DNA of 64,000 bases, taken from the NCBI GenBank assembly GCA_045546075.1, contig JAZQCF010000001.1, positions 79,683 through 143,682 of the forward strand, given 5' to 3'. The position numbers were made by a program, and so were the translations under genes. Of this stretch, positions 3,754-54,165 are shown one piece after another. The notes below the pieces were generated by a model. It was not told the DNA's origin and ran no database searches. It saw only the letters and a list, made by a program, of their open reading frames with translations. The stretch's first letter is position 1. Each line of letters begins with the position of its first letter. The DNA is from Candidatus Enterousia sp. Its GTDB lineage: Bacteria > Pseudomonadota > Alphaproteobacteria > Rs-D84.

Positions 3754-4326
3754 ATGAAATTCAAATTGCTGTATTTTGGTGAAATTTTAATTAACCCCAA
3801 AAAGCGGGCCCAGCATATATCCGATATACGTATGCAATTTCACCCACAATTAAAGAAATTGGTTGAACATCAACCATGGGACAAATTAACACAATATATG
3901 GCACCGAACCCGGCAAAAAGTCCGGTCATTACACGCCACGTTGGCGGCATAGATTGGAATCCAATCATTACACCAAAACTGAAACTGATTGCAGAATTAG
4001 ATATTCAAATGTTGCACCCAGAAATTATCGGTGTTCCGCGTTCCGACATTGACAACCGAATCAAGACATTATTTGACGGTCTGCGTTGTCCACAAAATGA
4101 ACACGAAATCGGTCAAAACGTTCCACGTGATATTGGCCCAATTTATACCCTGTTGGATGATGACCATTTGATTACCAAGATATCTGTTAACACCAGCCAT
4201 TTGCTGTCATCGCATATGTTTCATCCTGATTTGGTGACCACCAGTCCCGATTGTGTATTTATGATGATTGATGTAAACCTGCGTGTCGCCGAAGGTACGT
4301 TGGAAAACCTGCCGTTTATGGTATAG
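3754..4326 (+). CDS. Hypothetical protein with a RusA-like D-x-D-N-x-x-K ... DDD motif (190 aa)
   Basis: PRSDIDNRIKTLFDGL ... LLDDDHLI has the same spacing as E. coli RusA RRDLDNLQKAAFDAL ... LDDAQV (D70, D72, K76, D91), except for a ~16-aa insertion before the last acidic residue. This is a by-eye match only. The TAG stop abuts a repeat element. Confidence 0.4.
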   Translation: MKFKLLYFGEILINPKKRAQHISDIRMQFHPQLKKLVEHQPWDKLTQYMAPNPAKSPVITRHVGGIDWNPIITPKLKLIAELDIQMLHPEIIGVPRSDIDNRIKTLFDGLRCPQNEHEIGQNVPRDIGPIYTLLDDDHLITKISVNTSHLLSSHMFHPDLVTTSPDCVFMMIDVNLRVAEGTLENLPFMV

Positions 4327-4327
4327 A

Positions 4328-4396
4328 GTGGTTAGTGTAAGTGGATAGTGGTTAGTGATTGATGGCCTCTGGAATATTCCAGAAACTGCTAACCAC
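4328..4396 (+). repeat. GTGGTTAGTG-family palindromic element, short form (copy A-left)
   Basis: GTGGTTAGTG at 4328 and 4348, a perfect 16-bp palindrome TCTGGAATATTCCAGA at 4368-4383, and CTAACCAC at 4389-4396. It aligns with the copies at 4810-4892 and with the reverse complement of 20437-20516. Confidence 0.85.
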
Positions 4397-4402
4397 TCCC
4401 CA

Positions 4403-4570
4403 CTAAATATCACTCATCGCCTGCTGTGTTATTGCACAGATTAAACCGACAAACTCTTTTTGGGTCATTCTGTATCCGCGGTGTTTTTTATAAAAATCAA
4501 GAATAGCCGCAATTAATAATTCTTCATGTTCCGCTGCTGGTTTTACTTTCTTTGTTTTTGCATTGTTCAT
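4403..4570 (-). CDS. Small HTH-like protein (55 aa, below the ORF-track cutoff)
   Basis: Hand translation gives MNNAKTKKVKPAAEHEELLIAAILDFYKKHRGYRMTQKEFVGLICAITQQAMSDI*. SD AAGAGGA lies 7 nt upstream of the ATG at 4570. The C-terminus resembles XRE-type helix 2-3 (MTQKEF..L..ITQQAMS). The stop sits at the element edge. Confidence 0.4.
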   Translation of the reverse strand: MNNAKTKKVKPAAEHEELLIAAILDFYKKHRGYRMTQKEFVGLICAITQQAMSDI

Positions 4571-4587
4571 TTTTTAATCCTCTTATT

Positions 4588-4703
4588 AAAAACAAAAACC
4601 GTTAGAAAAAATTCAAACGGTTGGATGTTCACAGCTATTGATATCGGTAAATAGTGGGTTTATTCATATATATCACCCCATCCAACCGATGGTTGGATTT
4701 TTT
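4588..4703. ncRNA. Conserved structured non-coding module, copy A (leader, attenuator or sRNA; strand unresolved)
   Basis: Hairpin 4597-4603/4616-4622. GGTTGGATG (4619-4627) is complementary to CATCCAACC (4679-4687). Conserved block GTTTATTCATATATAT at 4658-4673. Hairpin ATCCAACC-GAT-GGTTGGAT followed by TTTTT at 4680-4703. The same element order occurs at 53427-53550. Confidence 0.35.
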
Positions 4704-4809
4704 ACATCATCGCTGATGCCAATATCATACATGGGCTGTGACACCCACCGATAGAATCCCTATCAACAATTGAAACATACAATAAATTCAATCGAAAATC
4801 AATTAGAAA

Positions 4810-4892
4810 GTGGTTAGTGGATAGTGGTTAGTGACTGGTGGTTTCTGGAATAATTTCATAATTACAAACTAATTCCAGAAACTACTAACCAC
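4810..4892 (+). repeat. GTGGTTAGTG-family palindromic element, long form (copy A-right)
   Basis: GTGGTTAGTG at 4810 and 4824, inverted repeat TTTCTGGAAT (4842-4851) / ATTCCAGAAA (4872-4881), and CTAACCAC at 4885-4892. It contains the TAG stop of the pilR-like gene. Confidence 0.85.
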
Positions 4893-5962
4893 TAACTTAA
4901 AAACGCCGTTATCTGGTCTTGCATTTGGAATGTGCCAAGGACAATCCACGCAATCACCGCGGATATAAGTAATATTCCAACCGTATTCAATGTTTCCGCA
5001 ACCGATTCAATTTTCTTGACCGAATTTTCCAAATAGTCATTTGAAATCTGGGTCAGGTTTTCATCAAAATCGTTCATATCGGCATAAATTGTCAAATCAC
5101 CAATCAATTCCTGATTTGGAAAATCCATACCTGTATTTTGCAACGCATTCCCAAGGTTATCACCATTTGCAATATAATGCAGCGTTTCATCTAAAATCCT
5201 GCGCAGATATCGGTTGGAATTATCGGCCAACATACGCATTGCATCCGGAATCGTAACACCCGCCGCAACCATCGCAGAAAGCGACATCATCCAACCAACC
5301 GACAGACGAATTTTATAAATATTCCACGGGGGCAAACCATCAAATATTGCACGCAAACGACCCGAAAAACGTGGCAAAGACCACCAAACAAAAATACCAA
5401 ACACAACCAATACTATTGAAAACGCCTTCCAATATTTACCGGCAATATTTGACAACCATATCAATGATGCCGCCCCACCCGACCAAACCATATCTTCGCC
5501 GGCAACCGCGGAAAGTGGTGGCACCAAATATAAACCGACCATAATTATAATCGCAAAAACCAAAACCAATAACAACGTTGGATATGCTATTGCACTGAAT
5601 ACCGCACTACCTATTCTTTTATTTGCAACAATAATGCGACCGACATTTTCCAATGCGACAATTAAACTGGACATATTTCCAGATGTTAACAGTAATGTTT
5701 CTTCGGCGGGAACCCAACCACGTGTGGCCTCAGAAAAACTCATTCCGCGTTCCAGGTTTTTTTCCCATTCGCGCATACATATTGCAAACGGTTCATTTGG
5801 TTTTGCGCCACCACGTGATTCAATCATTTGCAATCTGTTCAACGCATTTACCAATGTAAAATCATTTTTCAACAACGATACCAATTTACGCCATATAGAA
5901 ATACGTTTATCATTACTGAAACGACAAACCATTTTGGCATAAAATATTTCCAACCTGTTCAT
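4892..5962 (-). CDS. Type IV pilus/T2SS platform protein (GspF/PilC family; R64 PilR / BfpE position)
   Basis: Polytopic membrane protein of ~356 aa with GspF-like organisation, immediately downstream of the secretion ATPase. I placed the start at MNRLEIF (5962), which has a GGGGG SD, rather than at 6013. Confidence 0.75.
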   Translation of the reverse strand: MNRLEIFYAKMVCRFSNDKRISIWRKLVSLLKNDFTLVNALNRLQMIESRGGAKPNEPFAICMREWEKNLERGMSFSEATRGWVPAEETLLLTSGNMSSLIVALENVGRIIVANKRIGSAVFSAIAYPTLLLVLVFAIIIMVGLYLVPPLSAVAGEDMVWSGGAASLIWLSNIAGKYWKAFSIVLVVFGIFVWWSLPRFSGRLRAIFDGLPPWNIYKIRLSVGWMMSLSAMVAAGVTIPDAMRMLADNSNRYLRRILDETLHYIANGDNLGNALQNTGMDFPNQELIGDLTIYADMNDFDENLTQISNDYLENSVKKIESVAETLNTVGILLISAVIAWIVLGTFQMQDQITAFLS

Positions 5963-12935: not shown

Positions 12936-13012
<77 letters not shown>

Positions 13013-13026
13013 AGATTTAACAAAAG

Positions 13027-13048
13027 ACATCCCTTGTGGATGTTTTTT
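13027..13048 (+). terminator. Intrinsic terminator after tRNA-fMet
   Basis: ACATCC-CTTGT-GGATGT followed by TTTTT. Confidence 0.7.
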
Positions 13049-13057
13049 GTTAAATAT

Positions 13058-13529
13058 GTGTGTTGTGTTGGATTTGAACCACCGAATAAAGGTGGTTCAG
13101 TGCAAGGATTAGGCGATTGGAAAGCGCCGGTTTGCGCGTCGCGCAAAAATCCGCAGCCAATGAAGCAAAGCGAAATAAATCCATCCCCCGCAACCAGTTT
13201 TAATAAAAAATGTGCCCCTGTGGCGCATTTTTTATTTAAAGTGTGTTGTGTTGGGTTTGAACCACCGAGGCAAGGTGGTTCACCACAAGCGAAAGCCGGA
13301 CGGAAGTACGGCGGTCAACCAATGGTTGATGAGCGCAGTTGGCGCGAAAATTTTATTTTCGCGAAATCCATCCAACCTAAATTTCGAATAACTACAAATT
13401 TGCGCGCAGCCGGCACATAATGTACCGCGCGAGCGACAACAAGTAGATTTTGGGAAGCGCAGCGCAGCAAAATCGCTATGGTTGCCCAGCAGACACCAAT
13501 GGTGTCGATGGAAATCCATCCCCCCGCCA
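13058..13529 (+). repeat. Tandem copies of the tRNA-fMet 3' end with associated hairpins (att-like scars)
   Basis: AAATCCATCCCCCGCAACCA (12993-13012) recurs perfectly at 13177-13196, in degenerate form at 13364-13377, and near-perfectly at 13512-13529. Homologous units GTGTGTTGTGTTGG(A/G)TTTGAACCACC-N7-GGTGGTTCA lie at 13058-13099 and 13241-13281. A second terminator lies at 13210-13233. Confidence 0.8.
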
Positions 13530-19825: not shown

Positions 19826-20437
19826 ATGTTGAAAAAATTTCTAATTTTTGCAATTTGTTTTTCATCAATATCGTGTTTTGCGAACGATTGTATTAAATAT
19901 AAACAAACCCCGAAAGTTAATATTGCATCCCCGATATATCGAAAATCTGTTTCGCAATCAAATATTCAAATAAATAAAAATCATGGAAATGTAATTGCGA
20001 CATTGGTTGAAGATTATGATATTGCCGTTGATATATTTTCGGCCCCGGGTGGTTATTGTGTTGTATTAAAATCTGTTGATGCGTTAATTGGGTACGATGA
20101 TTTTTCTGTTAAAATTGATTATTCACATAAATATGGTTCGTGTTCATATAACGCGATTTTGAATCACGAAGATAAACACATCGATGCATATTTATCTGTT
20201 ATAAATGATTTAGAATTTGATATAGAAAGTTCGGTATTTAACGCGGCGGATTCAATGATGCCGATATTTGTATCATCGCGCGATGATATAGAATCCGCCA
20301 TAGAAGAAATAAACTATGAAATGCGTGGTCATCCAGAATTAATTTTGATAAAACAAAAAATCAATGCGGCAATGGAAATTCGCAATAAACGCATAGACCA
20401 AAATGAAGATAATCACGAATTAAAATCGTGCTTTTAG
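19826..20437 (+). CDS. Secreted protein with an HExxH motif (203 aa; possible Zn-metallopeptidase-like protein)
   Basis: Signal-like N-terminus MLKKFLIFAICFSSISCFA and LNHEDKHIDAY (HEDKH = HExxH). It starts 2 nt after the virB4 stop. Any family assignment (DUF922-like?) is not verifiable here. Confidence 0.35.
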   Translation: MLKKFLIFAICFSSISCFANDCIKYKQTPKVNIASPIYRKSVSQSNIQINKNHGNVIATLVEDYDIAVDIFSAPGGYCVVLKSVDALIGYDDFSVKIDYSHKYGSCSYNAILNHEDKHIDAYLSVINDLEFDIESSVFNAADSMMPIFVSSRDDIESAIEEINYEMRGHPELILIKQKINAAMEIRNKRIDQNEDNHELKSCF

Positions 20438-20516
20438 TGGTTAGTAGTTTCTGGAATTAATTCACGATTATGAAATTATTCTAGATACCACAAGTCACTA
20501 ACCACTTACACTAACA
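20437..20516 (-). repeat. GTGGTTAGTG-family palindromic element, solo copy C (inverted relative to the A copies)
   Basis: The reverse complement aligns with 4810-4892 at roughly 85 percent identity by eye. It spans from the TAG stop of ORF 19826-20437 into the last codons and stop of dnaG. Confidence 0.85.
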
Positions 20517-22119
20517 ATTCAAACTTTTCACGCATACGGGAAATTTCTTCGTCTATACGGCGGATTTCGGCACTTACATCACTTTCACCGGAAAGTCCGC
20601 GTATGGTTAAATCACGTTTTTGTTTTTCCAAACTTTCAATATATTTTTGTATTTTTAATGACACAATATATTTTTCCGCAGATTTCAAATCAAAATCAAA
20701 ATCCGGCCGCATATTAGAATCCAGGTCCAAGTTAAATTTACTGATAAAATCACCATAGCGTTCTGCGATCTCGGGGAATTTGTTTACAATATAAATAAGA
20801 GTGTTCTTCATAATGTTATCTATTTCCGGGACATCAATGTTTGACACTTCTTTTTGATTACTATAATTTCTCCATTCTTGGTATTTACGATTTTTGTAAT
20901 CACGTTCATATTCATATTTTAATAAATTATCTTGTATTTTATCTGTATGTTGTTTCAAGAATTTTTCTGCCTGAACCCGACCGGATGGGGTTTTTATTAA
21001 AAAATTCTTATTCGCAATATTCCACAGAAAATCAACCAAAGGTGTCGCAGAATCTATAATTTTTTTCATTTCATCTGCCCCGCCCTTTTTTAATACTTCA
21101 TCTGGGTCTTTGCCACCGGTTACAAACGCAAAACTAACGTTCGAATTATCACGCAAGAACGGTAATATAATACCGCACGCCCGCGCAGCGGCCTTTTGCC
21201 CTGCCGTATCCCCATCAAAACAGAAAATAATATTTCTGTTCGCCTTGCATAATATTGCGATATGGTCTTCGGTCAATGCGGTTCCCAACGGTGCAACCGT
21301 TTCGCCAAAACCATTACATTGCATTTGAATCGCATCGATTTGACCTTCTACAATAATTGCGCGGTTTGCCCGGTGAATTGATTCGCGTGCAAAGTTAAAC
21401 CCGAACAGTGTTTGTCGTTTATGAAACATTTCTGTATCGGTTGTGTTTATATACTTTGGTTCAGACCCGTCCAAAGAACGTCCCGAAAAAGCAACAATTT
21501 GGCCGTGCGCGTTAAAAATTGGAAACATTAATTTATCACGAAAGAAATCATACAAACCATAATCGCCGCGGCGAACAAGCCCTGTTGCAATTAATTTATC
21601 TTGTTTTGTATTTGCGAATTTGTTTGAAATAATATTGTTTTTTGGTGCATAACCGATGCCATATTTTTTTATCATTTCATCACTGAAACCACGCCGGCGT
21701 ATGTATTCCAATGCATACGCGCCATCGGGTGAAAATAATTTTTCGGCATAAATTTTTGCCGCCGCCGATGTGATTGTTATATATGTTTCTTCGGCTTCGA
21801 TTTGTTGTTGTGTTTTTGGTTTGTATGTTGGCAACTTTAATCCCGCCATATCGGCCAATTCGGCAATAGCGGTTTTGAAATCAACGTGTTCAGTTTCCAT
21901 TGTAAAAGAAATAATGTCGCCATGTTTTCCGCAACCAAAACAATGAAAAAATCCTTTTTCTTCACTGACCGAAAAAGACGGTGTTTTTTCGTTATGAAAT
22001 GGGCAACATCCCCAATAATTTTGACCTTTTTTAACCAACGGAACACGGCGGGATACAACGTCCACAATGGATAATCGTTCACGTAATTGGTCGGTAAAAT
22101 TATTATCAAATTTTGCCAT
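20506..22119 (-). CDS. dnaG: DNA primase
   Basis: Zinc ribbon CCPFHNEKTPSFSV...CFGCG, Toprim IIVEGQIDA, 537 aa. Confidence 0.95.
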   Translation of the reverse strand: MAKFDNNFTDQLRERLSIVDVVSRRVPLVKKGQNYWGCCPFHNEKTPSFSVSEEKGFFHCFGCGKHGDIISFTMETEHVDFKTAIAELADMAGLKLPTYKPKTQQQIEAEETYITITSAAAKIYAEKLFSPDGAYALEYIRRRGFSDEMIKKYGIGYAPKNNIISNKFANTKQDKLIATGLVRRGDYGLYDFFRDKLMFPIFNAHGQIVAFSGRSLDGSEPKYINTTDTEMFHKRQTLFGFNFARESIHRANRAIIVEGQIDAIQMQCNGFGETVAPLGTALTEDHIAILCKANRNIIFCFDGDTAGQKAAARACGIILPFLRDNSNVSFAFVTGGKDPDEVLKKGGADEMKKIIDSATPLVDFLWNIANKNFLIKTPSGRVQAEKFLKQHTDKIQDNLLKYEYERDYKNRKYQEWRNYSNQKEVSNIDVPEIDNIMKNTLIYIVNKFPEIAERYGDFISKFNLDLDSNMRPDFDFDLKSAEKYIVSLKIQKYIESLEKQKRDLTIRGLSGESDVSAEIRRIDEEISRMREKFELLV

Positions 22120-35435: not shown

Positions 35436-35554
35436 ATTTTACCCGTCCTTTTTTGTTTAATTTTACTATTCCATAAAAAAGGTTAGTGTCAATAATTTTA
35501 TAAAATACAATAAAATACTGGAAATTTGAAATTTTATATATTAAAGTGGTTTAT

Positions 35555-39396: not shown

Positions 39397-39408
39397 GCCC
39401 GTTGCCTT

Positions 39409-39475
39409 GGGTGGTTAGTTCGGTTGGGAAGCCGCGTACGTTGACATCGTAAAGGTCGTTGGTTCCCGGCCCGAG
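39409..39475 (+). pseudogene. Degenerate partial copy of tRNA-Val
   Basis: It shares GGGTGGTTAG and a 29-nt block TACGTTGACATCGTAAAGGTCGTTGGTTC (39437-39465) with the adjacent tRNA-Val. The D-arm, the T-stem 3' half and the acceptor 3' strand do not pair. Confidence 0.55.
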
Positions 39476-39491
39476 AACACTTGAAGAATAT

Positions 39492-39568
39492 GGGTGGTTA
39501 GCTCAGTTGGTTAGAGCGTTACGTTGACATCGTAAAGGTCGTTGGTTCGAGTCCAATACCACCCACCA
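39492..39568 (+). tRNA. tRNA-Val (anticodon GAC), CCA encoded
   Basis: GGGTGGTTAGCTCAGTTGGTTAGAGC, anticodon loop TTGACAT, T-arm GTTGGTTCGAGTCCAAT, then ACCACCCACCA. Length 77 nt. Confidence 0.95.
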
Positions 39569-39596: not shown

Positions 39597-39728
39597 AAAA
39601 TTTGAGTGTCGCGGCGTAGCAATCGTAAGATTGCGTAGACGGACAGAAAGTTCGTTTATGCGCACGATTAAAAAAATTTGAGTGTCACGCCGTGGCAATC
39701 GCAAGATTGCAAAGGCGGACGAAGTTCC
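39597..39728 (+). repeat. Two tandem ~76-bp repeats with GNRA-type hairpins
   Basis: Each unit starts AAATTTGAGTGTC(G/A)CG(G/C)CGT(A/G)GCAATCG(T/C)AAGATTGC...GGCGGAC. The hairpins are GCAATC-GTAA-GATTGC (39619-39634) and GCAATC-GCAA-GATTGC (39695-39710). Related AGTGTCGCGCCGTAGCAA motifs occur at 34791 and 34856. Confidence 0.8.
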
Positions 39729-53092: not shown

Positions 53093-53149
53093 TGGTTAGT
53101 CCGTCACGACCGCGGCGCGGCGTGCCGCGACGGGTGTTAGTGGTTAGTG
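53092..53149 (+). repeat. GTGGTTAGTG-family motifs flanking a GC-rich hairpin (copy B-left)
   Basis: GTGGTTAGT at 53092 overlaps the fabZ TAG stop, and GTGGTTAGTG lies at 53140. GC-rich imperfect palindromic sequence sits between them. Confidence 0.7.
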
Positions 53150-53172
53150 CGGGCGCAATTGCGCCCGTTTTT
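53150..53172 (+). terminator. Intrinsic terminator after fabZ
   Basis: CGGGCGC-AATT-GCGCCCG followed by TTTTT. Confidence 0.75.
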
Positions 53173-53398
53173 ATTTGTGTTTTGGGGGCACGCGCCGGCA
53201 CCGCAACAGGCAAAACCCGTGATAAAATACAGATTGTAAAATATTGTCCGGAATTATCTCTTTACCCTGTTCATATTTATGTAATTGCCGTGCAGATATT
53301 GAAAACATCCTTGCAACGTCATCTGCGCCCAGGCAATTATGCCGCCGCGCATTACGCAACGCGCGCCCAAAATATTTTGAATCAACCAATGTAACCAT
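53171..53398 (-). CDS. XRE-family helix-turn-helix protein (75 aa)
   Basis: GRALRNARRHNCLGADDVARMFSISARQLHKYEQGKEIIP is a canonical XRE HTH. A GGAGG SD lies 6 nt upstream of the ATG. Confidence 0.65.
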   Translation of the reverse strand: MVTLVDSKYFGRALRNARRHNCLGADDVARMFSISARQLHKYEQGKEIIPDNILQSVFYHGFCLLRCRRVPPKHK

Positions 53399-53426
53399 TT
53401 TATACCTCCATTTTGGTTATAAAAAT

Positions 53427-53550
53427 ACCGTCAAGACATTTGACGGTTGGAGGTTAGAAACCTGTAAGATACAACAGTGTCGTTTATTCAATATATTCGC
53501 GACCCTCCAACCAAATGGAGTTTTCGTATCTTAAGAGGGTTTCTAATCCT
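53427..53550. ncRNA. Conserved structured non-coding module, copy B
   Basis: Hairpin 53427-53433/53441-53447. GGTTGGAGG (53445-53453) is complementary to CCTCCAACC (53504-53512). Conserved block GTTTATTCAATATATT at 53482-53497. Local hairpin followed by TTTTC at 53505-53525. A long imperfect stem pairs 53451-53472 with 53526-53550. Confidence 0.35.
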
Positions 53551-53587
53551 CGCACTGGTTGTCAACCAATGCAGAAATATTATAATT

Positions 53588-53615
53588 GAAAACGGTTGCG
53601 CTTGCAACCGTTTTC
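53588..53615. terminator. Strong bidirectional terminator hairpin
   Basis: GAAAACGGTTGC-GCTT-GCAACCGTTTTC, a 12-bp stem. Confidence 0.7.
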
Positions 53616-53616
53616 G

Positions 53617-53655
53617 CACTAACCACTAATCACTAACACTAACCACTAACACTCG
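53617..53655 (-). repeat. GTGGTTAGTG-family motifs, inverted orientation (copy B-right)
   Basis: CACTAACCAC at 53617 and 53637, with related CACTAAC units between them. It ends 4 nt before the stop of the VIT-family gene. Confidence 0.75.
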
Positions 53656-53658
53656 CCA

Positions 53659-54165
53659 CTATATCGCTATCCCGAAAAATATTTTTGCGCATTCGCCAAT
53701 CGCAAACGCAACAAACGTCACAATCGCACAGATTATCAACATCTCGATAAACGATGGCCAAAGGCGCACCCCCATTAACACAGAACGCAAATAATTAAAC
53801 ATAAATATTATTGACGCGCCGATAACAAAGGTCATTGTAATCGCAATAAAGGAATTTTCGATAAATATAAATGGCACCAATAACATAAGCGCACTGAACA
53901 TATAGGCAATGCCCGTCATTATGCCGCGCCATAATGCGACCCGCGTGTTACCGCCCGCCTTTTGCGACAGGTATTGCGATGCCGTCATTGACAATCCCGC
54001 CGATGCCGCGGCAATAAGACCCGTTAAAACGATTACATATTGTGTCGCATCGGCAAACACCAACCCGGTAATCAAACCCAGTGTTGATACCAATGCGTCG
54101 TGCATTCCCAAAACCAGTGAGGCCCAAACAGGTTCTTGTTCTTTCATTTTCGTCATACTTTTCAT
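53659..54165 (-). CDS. VIT1/CCC1-family membrane protein (iron/manganese transporter-like, no ferritin-like domain)
   Basis: LGMHDALVSTLGLITG motif and five TM helices. 168 aa. Confidence 0.65.
   Translation of the reverse strand: MKSMTKMKEQEPVWASLVLGMHDALVSTLGLITGLVFADATQYVIVLTGLIAAASAGLSMTASQYLSQKAGGNTRVALWRGIMTGIAYMFSALMLLVPFIFIENSFIAITMTFVIGASIIFMFNYLRSVLMGVRLWPSFIEMLIICAIVTFVAFAIGECAKIFFGIAI

Follow-up and report, generated by a model that had tools for sequence, protein, structure and literature searches.

The 64-kb window analyzed here (the whole stretch of DNA, from a Candidatus Enterousia sp.) contains two loci, referred to below as A and B, in which a noncoding module precedes a small gene. 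The two loci are copies of a single, larger, apparently uncatalogued structured leader RNA of ~160 to 190 nucleotides (nt). Enterousia and other Rs-D84 are uncultured gut Alphaproteobacteria with genomes of under about 1 Mb (PMC12306168), and nothing on gene regulation in Enterousia or Rs-D84 was found in the searched literature. The initial annotation, made from the sequence of the window, had described a paralogous structured noncoding module at positions 4588-4703 and at its counterpart in locus B. That observation has been borne out and proved to be understated, as sequence comparison indicates a real and large RNA family. The five parts of the module stood; its confinement to 4588-4703 did not, since this segment makes up only the 3′ 60% of the element and the 5′ domain, the pseudoknot, and the module's own promoter lie outside it. 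The whole unit occupies positions 4588-4802 in A and 53419-53607 in B.

Features of the Two Loci

Read on the minus strand, both loci display the same order of elements: a promoter of the sigma-70 type, hairpin P0, G-run, strands H2a and H3a, (in A only) an extra hairpin with a GCGA tetraloop, segments a and b, hairpins H5 and H6, strand H2b, and segment c. Segment c is followed by a GC-rich hairpin that reuses its last nucleotides, a U-run, a Shine-Dalgarno sequence (SD), and an ATG codon. H2a and H3a are the variable strands, and at both loci the H6 loop is complementary to H3a.

Copy A
4774-4802, minus strand: promoter TTGATT (4797-4802), 17-nt spacer, TATGTT (4774-4779), placed by string location and family position
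4588-4773, minus strand: leader RNA from predicted start to end of the U-run, ~186 nt, from a manual helix parse and a cmsearch match (covariance model R1) spanning 4587-4757
4750-4764, minus strand: hairpin P0, GAUAG/CUAUC
4630-4740, minus strand: long-range helix H2, CACAGC (4735-4740) with GCUGUG (4630-4635), enclosing the core
4719-4726, minus strand: H3a, GAUAUUGG, pairing with H3b
4640-4647, minus strand: H3b, CCGAUAUC, in the H6 loop, forming a pseudoknot with H3a that includes one U·G pair
4705-4718, minus strand: optional inserted hairpin CAUCA-GCGA-UGAUG with a GNRA tetraloop
4691-4698, minus strand: segment a, AUCCAACC, the predicted anti-antiterminator strand and 5′ arm of hairpin H4
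4679-4687, minus strand: segment b, GGUUGGAUG, whose partner is either a or c
4656-4678, minus strand: hairpin H5 (GGGU/ACCC) with the conserved loop GAUAUAUAUGAAUAA
4635-4654, minus strand: hairpin H6 (CUAUU/AAUAG), whose loop carries H3b
4619-4627, minus strand: segment c, CAUCCAACC, 9 bp with b, its last 4 nt common to the terminator
4588-4622, minus strand: intrinsic terminator AACCGUU-(12-nt loop)-AACGGUU, then UUUUGUUUUU; -9.7 kcal/mol
4403-4584, minus strand: SD AAGAGGA (4578-4584) and an open reading frame (ORF) of 55 amino acids (aa) (4403-4570)

Copy B
53579-53607, minus strand: promoter TTGCAA-17-TATAAT, from a generic scan (10/12 matches) and family position
53419-53578, minus strand: leader RNA, ~160 nt, without the insertion hairpin; cmsearch score of 139.3 bits
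53553-53571, minus strand: hairpin P0
53538-53546 with 53454-53462, minus strand: helix H2
53526-53533 with 53465-53472, minus strand: H3a with H3b
53516-53520, minus strand: segment a
53504-53512, minus strand: segment b
53479-53503, minus strand: hairpin H5
53462-53477, minus strand: hairpin H6
53445-53453, minus strand: segment c
53419-53447, minus strand: intrinsic terminator ACCGUCAA-AUGUC-UUGACGGU, then AUUUUUAU; -10.8 kcal/mol (generic scan)
53171-53410, minus strand: SD UGGAGGU (53404-53410) and a 75-aa ORF (53171-53398) encoding an Xre-type helix-turn-helix (HTH) protein (Pfam HTH_19)

All five elements listed in the initial annotation, which had read them on the plus strand, are present at both loci and can be placed on this map. 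The first hairpin (4597-4603/4616-4622 in A and 53427-53434/53440-53447 in B) is the intrinsic terminator, which lies immediately before the SD and ATG. The second element (GGTTGGATG at 4619-4627 and GGTTGGAGG at 53445-53453) is segment c read as complement, the third (4658-4673 and 53482-53497) is the conserved H5 loop, and the fourth (CATCCAACC at 4679-4687 and CCTCCAACC at 53504-53512) is segment b, again read as complement, as is the fifth, the local hairpin at 4680-4698 and 53505-53520, which corresponds to hairpin H4 formed by a and b. The compensatory T/G versus A/C difference between A and B is real. In the two loci, segment a (A/CUCCAACC), segment b (GGUUGGAKG), and segment c (CMUCCAACC) are accompanied by the H5 loop GAWAUAUNUGAAUAAA; in the family as a whole, this loop has the near-invariant form GA-WWWW-NUUGAAUAAR. 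The promoter of copy A is weaker than the consensus and was not picked up by the generic promoter scan.

The window genes around the two copies include the housekeeping genes gyrB, pilB/pilC-like genes, lpxD, and fabZ. Copy B, which adjoins fabZ-lpxD, is syntenic with a locus from the collected set (L014; L numbers designate such loci throughout), and A and B are stable chromosomal loci. The 55-aa product of locus A had no Pfam match. Relatives of 51 to 55 aa are conserved behind the same RNA in L044 and L061, and a 76-aa relative is found in L082; because this short family is conserved, the product cannot be regarded as a truncation caused by the adjacent repeat. The members of the 51- to 55-aa family end right after a stretch that resembles an HTH.

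Recovery and Distribution of the Family

Homology search with the HTH protein of locus B returned only 9 close clusters, so further copies were collected by DNA pattern scans. An exact-pattern scan of one genome per GTDB species identified 10 true copies in five metagenome-assembled genomes (MAGs), with 5 of the copies in a single MAG; one of its 11 genome matches (L019) was a chance match and was discarded. The carriers are titled Candidatus Enterousia sp., "uncultured Rickettsiales," and similar, and the taxonomic labels used here are those of the MAG titles. A relaxed pattern yielded at least 120 loci in gut, rumen, and termite gut metagenomes. The scan of viral contigs gave just 3 loci and hence no sign of a phage element. 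Because the collecting patterns demanded parts of b, of the H5 loop, and of c, the apparent invariance of these three parts is inflated; the off-pattern copies found by the covariance model agree with the pattern-collected ones.

The covariance-model scan for homologues that the initial annotation had proposed (cmsearch with model R1) matched ~150 copies, many of which do not fit the search pattern; with the pattern scans, the total recovered exceeds 150 copies. A covariance model built without copy A recovered A at 56.4 bits (E value of about 1e-14, such E values being rough) and B at 139.3 bits, so that the resemblance between the two loci is far beyond chance. With the same model and filters turned off, nothing else in the 64-kb window rose above terminator-like noise. 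Strain-level copies of locus A (L001 to L008) encode an identical 55-aa protein and carry an identical RNA, so they say nothing on covariation.

At the gathering score, Rfam 15 recognized only 3 tRNAs in the whole window. Scans by E value of A, B, an array, and 20 further loci gave no match at the gathering score; below that threshold, the matches were to sRNA-Xcc1 and, at chance level, to c4-a1b1, OmrA-B, and others. No description of this leader RNA was found in full-text literature searches with the motif sequences, Enterousia, and Rs-D84.

Fold and Covariation

Structure statistics refer to 124 aligned copies (123 for promoter and GNRA counts). Standard pairs occupy 92.3% of the cells, compared to 72.9% in column shuffles and 38 to 51% with slid partners. 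Covariation scored 0.494, whereas shuffles gave 0.154 and slid controls no more than 0.09, and 34 of the 37 pairs change on both sides, which extends the covariation well beyond the single pair that A and B had offered. These comparisons show a predicted fold that consists of P0, H2, and a core three-way junction closed by the 9-bp b:c helix (GGUUGGAGG:CCUCCAACC), with H5 and H6 as its arms and H3 as a pseudoknot. When H2 is in place, b:c is topologically an H-type pseudoknot.

P0 is 95.3% paired, and all six of its pairs covary; in H2, both partners vary at 10 of the 12 pairs. Pairing in the H5 stem reaches 98.6%, with covariation at every pair, and the AAUAA of its loop is invariant in 122 to 124 of the 124 copies. 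H3 pairs a loop with a strand over 7 to 9 hypervariable base pairs; its best duplex averages 7.6 within a copy but 4.0 between copies. A mutual-information scan recovered the known helices and added two pairs, one closing the H5 loop (columns 238:262; C-G, U-A, or U-G) and one long-range pair (columns 52:268; U-A or C-G) that joins the base following the G-run to the one following H5. The extra hairpin between H3a and a is present in about half of the copies, and it has a GNRA loop in 21 of 123, compared to 1.4% of shuffles. An extension of H2 by pairing of the G-run with CCUC was dropped, as it shows almost no covariation; for the same reason, G-run pairing has been kept only as a possible alternative partner of c.

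Alternative Pairings of Segments a, b, and c

The pairing between the second and fourth elements of the initial annotation is a genuine covarying helix. In 107 of the 124 copies, all 9 bp of b:c are Watson-Crick, and in 117 the helix is at least nearly perfect. Of the 7 pairs that could be scored in the alignment, 5 have changes in both partners, and none of 500 shuffles matched the observed values. Compensated variants affect positions 3, 7, 8, and 9, one of them with an insertion, and include GGUUGGAGU:ACUCCAACC, GGUUGGAGA:UCUCCAACC, GGUUGGGGG:CCCCCAACC, GGUUGGGGU:ACCCCAACC, GGUUGGGGA:UCCCCAACC, GGCUGGAGG:CUCCAGCC, and GGUCAGGAG:CUCCUGACC. The variant of window copy A, GGUUGGAUG:CAUCCAACC (..AUG:CAU..), is found independently in L097; other variant ends are ..AGA:UCU.. 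and ..GGG:CCC.., and G·U pairs are seen in GGUUGGAGG:CCUCCAGCC.

Segment a is an upstream near-copy of c that competes for b by forming hairpin H4. In the alignment, where segment a is in part misplaced, the a:b pairing is 84% complete, and all six pairs covary. Model R1 misaligns this segment in copies with the insertion hairpin, so the a:b statistics were taken from per-sequence searches. Compensated cases are L032:407-588, L134:8415-8595, L035:4067-4225, and window copy A. In the unit L132:5632-5819, the segments are wholly recoded (CCAGUUCC / GGGACUGG / CCAGUCCC) with a:b covariation kept.

The terminator stem, 96.6% paired and likewise covarying, uses positions c7 to c9, so that c and the terminator's 5′ arm have the last 2 to 4 nt of c in common. 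Another possible partner for the 5′ half of c is the 5′ G-run, and this pairing is almost invariant. As b has two conserved and mutually exclusive partners and c serves both b and the terminator, the segments form a 1:2 / 2:3 / 3:4 arrangement. A conserved alternative helix that excludes the terminator, which is the mark of an attenuator, is thus present, with an overlap of 2 to 4 nt. The attenuator or expression-platform logic of the initial annotation, in which the pairing of the second and fourth elements excludes the local hairpin and overlaps the first hairpin, is accordingly supported by independent covariation, albeit on the opposite strand and within a bigger predicted fold than first described.

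Calculated energies are -7 to -10 kcal/mol for H4, approximately -10 to -11 kcal/mol for the terminator, and -13 to -15.5 kcal/mol for the b:c duplex. The minimum free energy (MFE) fold of copy B reproduces P0, H2, H3, H4, H5, and the terminator; this terminating form has -57.2 kcal/mol, versus -44.1 kcal/mol when b:c is forced without pseudoknots. The nascent transcript of B up to c folds into P0, H2, H3, a:b, and H5, to which the full-length fold adds the terminator.

Strand, Promoter, and Downstream Genes

In the minus-strand reading, the aligned copies contain 313 G·U or U·G cells and 78 A·C or C·A cells. A promoter-like TTGnnn-16/18-TAnnnT is present in 102 of 123 copies, with the -10 element ending 0 to 1 nt before model position 1 in 79 of these 102, and nearly all copies have a U-run after the last stem. 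The asymmetry between G·U and A·C, together with the fixed-distance promoter and the U-run, shows that the RNA is the minus strand; the plus-strand reading of the initial annotation was therefore abandoned.

An SD and an ORF follow the RNA in 90 of the 124 copies, at an offset of 2 to 98 nt from the end of the match (median, ~20 nt); at both window loci, the small gene begins ~17 to 20 nt past the terminator U-run. This leaves no space for a separate promoter, so the downstream genes in these copies depend on passing the terminator. The layout expected of an attenuator, i.e., a sense leader with an upstream promoter and an intrinsic terminator between the structured domain and the ribosome-binding site, can thus be recognized at the sequence level. 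Among the other copies, 15 are followed by the next RNA unit, 7 reach the contig end, and 12 remain; several of these 12 do have an ORF, either with a weak SD or separated from the RNA by the insertion of a GC-rich palindrome. GC-rich palindromic insertions between the terminator and the SD/ORF were seen in L079, L119, L081, and L054 and apparently represent a second kind of element similar to repetitive extragenic palindromes (REPs).

The downstream ORFs include one cluster of Xre-type HTH proteins with 33 members (Pfam HTH_19, HTH_3, and HTH_31), ~35 proteins with signal-peptide-like N termini that are often Cys-rich (one of them has a Listeria-Bacteroides repeat), and several families of small proteins.

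Proposed Mechanism and Alternative Explanations

Each locus can be viewed as a portable module, consisting of a promoter, a structured leader RNA, and an intrinsic terminator, placed sense to a small gene. It is probable that this module serves as an effector-dependent cis-acting transcription attenuator, which would be of the orphan riboswitch type or respond to a protein. The comparisons above show what underlies this prediction, namely, the structure and strand of the RNA, its promoter and terminator, the alternative pairings, and the association with genes; which way the switch works, and whether there is an effector and of what kind, is what we infer from them. Pairing of a with b and of c with the 3′ arm of the terminator would lead to termination, leaving a discrete RNA of ~160 to 190 nt and the gene off, whereas the full b:c helix would remove the 5′ arm of the terminator and allow read-through into the ORF. 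Termination is probably the default, given that the MFE folds of both the full-length and the nascent RNA of copy B are of the terminating form, and read-through should then need a stabilized three-way junction closed by b:c. The stabilizing effector might be a small molecule, which would make the element an ON riboswitch, or an RNA-binding protein; the data give no basis to choose. Recoding is tolerated in segments a, b, and c, but the nucleotides of the H5 loop and the junction do not vary, so the junction and this loop are what the effector would most likely recognize. The dispersed small Xre-type regulators and secreted or surface proteins would be co-regulated, and arrays of the core could add checkpoints or titrate such a factor.

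Several observations weigh against this interpretation. The downstream genes (small Xre-type, signal-peptide-bearing or Cys-rich, and assorted small ORFs) give no metabolic clue and so do not form the coherent pathway expected of a riboswitch regulon. Segment a follows a variant b less strictly than c does, its mean score being 5.75 against its own b and 5.1 against the consensus b. Only 2 to 4 nt are contested between b:c and the terminator, and a shortened b:c could coexist with the latter. The pairing of the G-run with c shows almost no covariation, with a compensating G-to-U change only in the two copies where c2 is A. At L033:160-570, there are five consecutive mini-units that comprise only b, H5, H6, a linker, and c, with neither the 5′ domain nor terminators; each b fits its own c at least as well as the neighboring c. 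This array shows that the main role of b:c is a structural one, that of closing the junction, and that b:c does not have to act as a regulated antiterminator. Finally, tandem arrays in which every unit has its own promoter and terminator (L032:151-1006, L132:5632-6435, L134:7979-8595, and L121:340-993) and a few orphan copies (L015:6383-6545) are equally typical of free-standing sibling small RNAs (sRNAs). These four arrays consist of 3 or 4 full units, the last of which is followed by a small ORF; among all relatives, arrays of 2 to 4 full units occur.

Two of these loci deserve a separate description. In L033, the c of one unit, the U-rich linker, and the b of the unit after it together resemble hairpin a:b, suggesting that segment a originated as the c of a unit located before it. 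The orphan copy L015:6383-6545, on the minus strand, is convergent to a canonical RNA-HTH cassette and has no SD or ORF behind it; a read-through transcript would run antisense to the neighboring HTH gene at the 3′ end of the latter, and the terminator of the orphan copy, though different in sequence, still overlaps c by 2 nt.

The alternative that fares best is that the units are trans-acting sibling sRNAs, or a multivalent RNA scaffold or sponge for a protein, with the H5 loop and its invariant AAUAA acting as the protein site or, as it could, as the seed; read-through into the downstream ORF would then be secondary, and such a role can coexist with one in cis. The promoter and terminator of each unit, the full-unit and fivefold mini-unit arrays, and the orphan copy without a gene all speak for independent multicopy units of this kind, as does the fact that the best Rfam likeness, even if below threshold, is to the experimentally detected 88-nt sRNA-Xcc1; the window itself contains two dispersed single units. 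However, in 90 of the 124 copies the RNA is directly followed by an SD and ORF, too closely for another promoter to fit in between, and a plain trans-acting sRNA would have no evident need for the conserved complementarity among a, b, and c that overlaps the terminator. Further, the b/c "codes" differ between neighboring units of one tandem array, which argues that the pairing is intramolecular and that multiunit transcripts exist. An sRNA or sponge function of this kind is considered unlikely.

The initial annotation had also offered a DNA-level explanation, a conserved promoter with operators for the HTH protein. In such a reading, the protein encoded next to the element would recognize operator half-sites, and altered operator specificity would account for the concerted changes. 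Indeed, GGTTGGAK is repeated three times next to the HTH gene, including a palindrome ATCCAACC-N3-GGTTGGAT, and the concerted change of all three 8-mers in A mimics operator-repressor coevolution. However, the same 8-mers precede HTH proteins with very different recognition helices, as well as ~35 non-HTH secreted proteins; the supposed promoter block is the loop of a covarying hairpin, while the real promoter lies ~110 to 125 bp upstream of the palindrome; b:c complementarity reaches a ninth position that is absent from a; many other hypervariable helices keep their complementarity; and the excess of G·U over A·C is a strand asymmetry not expected of duplex DNA sites. The operator reading is thus largely refuted and can be considered highly improbable.

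Hardly any weight can be given to ribosome-mediated attenuation of the trp type, through a tiny ORF that would start at NUG AAU AAR in the H5 loop (MNK...) or one over segment a. Most copies do have an in-frame NUG-AAU-AA(A/G), with a GGAGG in b upstream of the NUG and an AAA/AAG alternation that looks synonymous. However, the A/G covaries with the Y at column 238, its partner in the base pair closing the H5 loop; the supposed start codon begins with U, C, or A (93, 17, and 13 copies, respectively) and never with G; and the UG is lost in ~10 copies. Moreover, AAUAA is invariant at every codon position, codons 4 and 5 covary with the noncoding 5′ strand of H5, the ORF lengths vary from 6 to 27 codons, and the 12-nt spacing between GGAGG and NUG is longer than usual for an SD. 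No conserved ORF was found over segment a.

A divergent plus-strand sRNA ending at the terminator-like hairpin (4680-4703 in A and 53505-53525 in B), another suggestion of the initial annotation, is no less implausible: a generic scan does flag plus-strand terminator-like sites at 4680-4698 and 53505-53520, but what was taken for a terminator in A is hairpin H4 and the A-rich linker that precedes it, read backwards, the T-run being merely the complement of this moderately conserved linker; there is no conserved plus-strand promoter, and the base-pair asymmetry and the frame set by the conserved minus-strand promoter, U-run, and SD/ORF favor the other strand. An integron attC site was rejected after comparison by eye with the published consensus, which has the cores R″(RYYYAAC)...R′(GTTRRRY) and an imperfect palindrome no shorter than about 55 bp: only the ATCCAAC/GTTGGAT of copy A fits the core, the CTCCAAC/GTTGGAG of copy B and of the family consensus does not, and the palindrome is just 19 bp.

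Other Repeats in the Window

The window contains a family of REP-like palindromic elements in which GGTTAGTG/CACTAACC repeats surround a hairpin at the center; there are 9 occurrences of GGTTAGTG, against an expectation of 0.64. These elements (4326-4405, 4811-4896, 20434-20520, 35481-35488, 53136-53170, and 53590-53660) sit at gene 3′ ends and flank both RNA-gene cassettes. In the strain-level relatives L001 and L003, element 4811-4896 has a flipped or shorter center, pointing to inversion or variation of the hairpin center.

Two tRNA genes have repeats beside them. Just upstream of the intact tRNA-Val gene (39492-39568), its 5′ part is partially duplicated (39408-39465; 84% identity), and the gene is followed by a 48-nt direct repeat pair (39597-39644 and 39673-39720); these repeats may be the scar of an integration or duplication event. 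Downstream of tRNA-Met (12936-13012), there is a tandem duplication with a period of ~184 nt (12993-13106 and 13177-13289), whose segments start inside the tRNA 3′ end and each contain hairpin-like segments.

Significance

With >150 copies, strong covariation, a pseudoknot, and invariant loop nucleotides, this RNA is a well-supported candidate for the list of orphan riboswitch-like RNAs. Its many copies in compact genomes and its near-perfect alternative pairings make it a likely central regulatory device, and the copies provide a ready-made regulon definition in an organism that cannot be grown. The natural three-way covariation of a, b, and c, with codes specific to array units, should be useful for studies of cotranscriptional folding and for the design of orthogonal synthetic attenuators. 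With somewhat less than even confidence, we propose that the family constitutes a new class of RNA that senses an effector; it would be a riboswitch for a small molecule (possibly gut- or host-derived) or else the RNA half of a protein-RNA regulon with core arrays as sponges. Such a portable cassette with its own promoter would serve as the main regulatory network for Xre-type regulators and for secreted or surface proteins in Rs-D84/Enterousia, whose genomes are <1 Mb, and might share an ancient origin with sRNA-Xcc1.

Comparison with Known Systems

The 1:2 / 2:3 / 3:4 arrangement is that of the trp leader, and an overlap between the 3′ strand of the aptamer helix P1 and the terminator is found in the pbuE adenine ON riboswitch. 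Like attenuators and riboswitch expression platforms, the module is a sense leader between promoter and ribosome-binding site, with a GC-rich hairpin and U-run directly before the SD; its conserved b:c helix uses the 5′ arm of the terminator, and a competes for the antiterminator strand. The complex covarying aptamer-like domain, with its three-way junction, pseudoknot, and invariant loop nucleotides, is a further likeness to riboswitches. In contrast to known attenuators, there is no leader peptide and no metabolically coherent gene set; the module brings its own conserved promoter and exists in many dispersed, sometimes tandem, copies per small genome; and there is no separate platform, the strands that would switch being part of the folded domain itself, with only 2 to 4 nt contested.

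The immunity RNAs of phages P4 (CI) and P1/P7 (c4), represented in Rfam by C4 and c4-a1b1, follow a seqA-seqB-seqC logic. Here, too, b is complementary to both a and c on the same leader, the choice of pairing would decide on termination before the downstream genes, and the RNA is part of the leader that it would control. However, the defining features of these RNAs, as of the trp leader, are absent from the module; the structure differs, there is no phage context, and the c4-a1b1 scores of 15.7 to 18.2 bits are at chance level, compared to the gathering score of 46.7.

Sibling sRNAs of Alphaproteobacteria, such as the CcsR1-4 or "cuckoo" family, found beside a small ORF, and the alpha-r14 family, are short, simple stem-loops that expose a C-rich motif in their loops. 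The module resembles them in being multicopy and sometimes tandem, in its C-rich CCUCC-like motifs, and in adjoining small protein genes; it differs in that its CUCC motifs are paired within a multihelix fold of 170 to 190 nt, and no Rfam matches to those families were obtained.

The closest likeness is to sRNA-Xcc1 (RF02221), an experimentally detected RNA located upstream of symE in Xanthomonas integron cassettes and, in some APSE phages, upstream of a gene for an ORF6N-domain protein. In four relatives of the window copies, the b...c core scored 34.2, 32.3, 31.1, and 30.6 bits against this family, well below its gathering score of 53, and A and B themselves gave no RF02221 match at E values of ≤10. 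The host lineage and the downstream genes (Xre-type HTH or secreted proteins, not symE-like ones) are different, the conserved loop is not the same, and the 5′ domain (P0, H2, and the H3 pseudoknot) and segment a are additional here. An integron context was not seen at the window loci, which lie among chromosomal housekeeping genes, no search having been aimed at integrase or attC sites. Nevertheless, a full-length alignment (positions 1-87) over the b-H5-H6-c core gives the same layout, a resemblance only, in which a 9-bp closing helix (GGCCGGGGG/CCCCCGGCC in sRNA-Xcc1 and GGUUGGAGG/CCUCCAACC here) encloses a hairpin with a large A/U-rich loop and a second hairpin, with a short linker and an ACC...UUUU tail; both RNAs are cassette-like units directly upstream of a small gene. 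Distant homology is thus a lead suggested by the alignment, as distinct from family membership, and it may provide a functional clue to the poorly understood sRNA-Xcc1 family.

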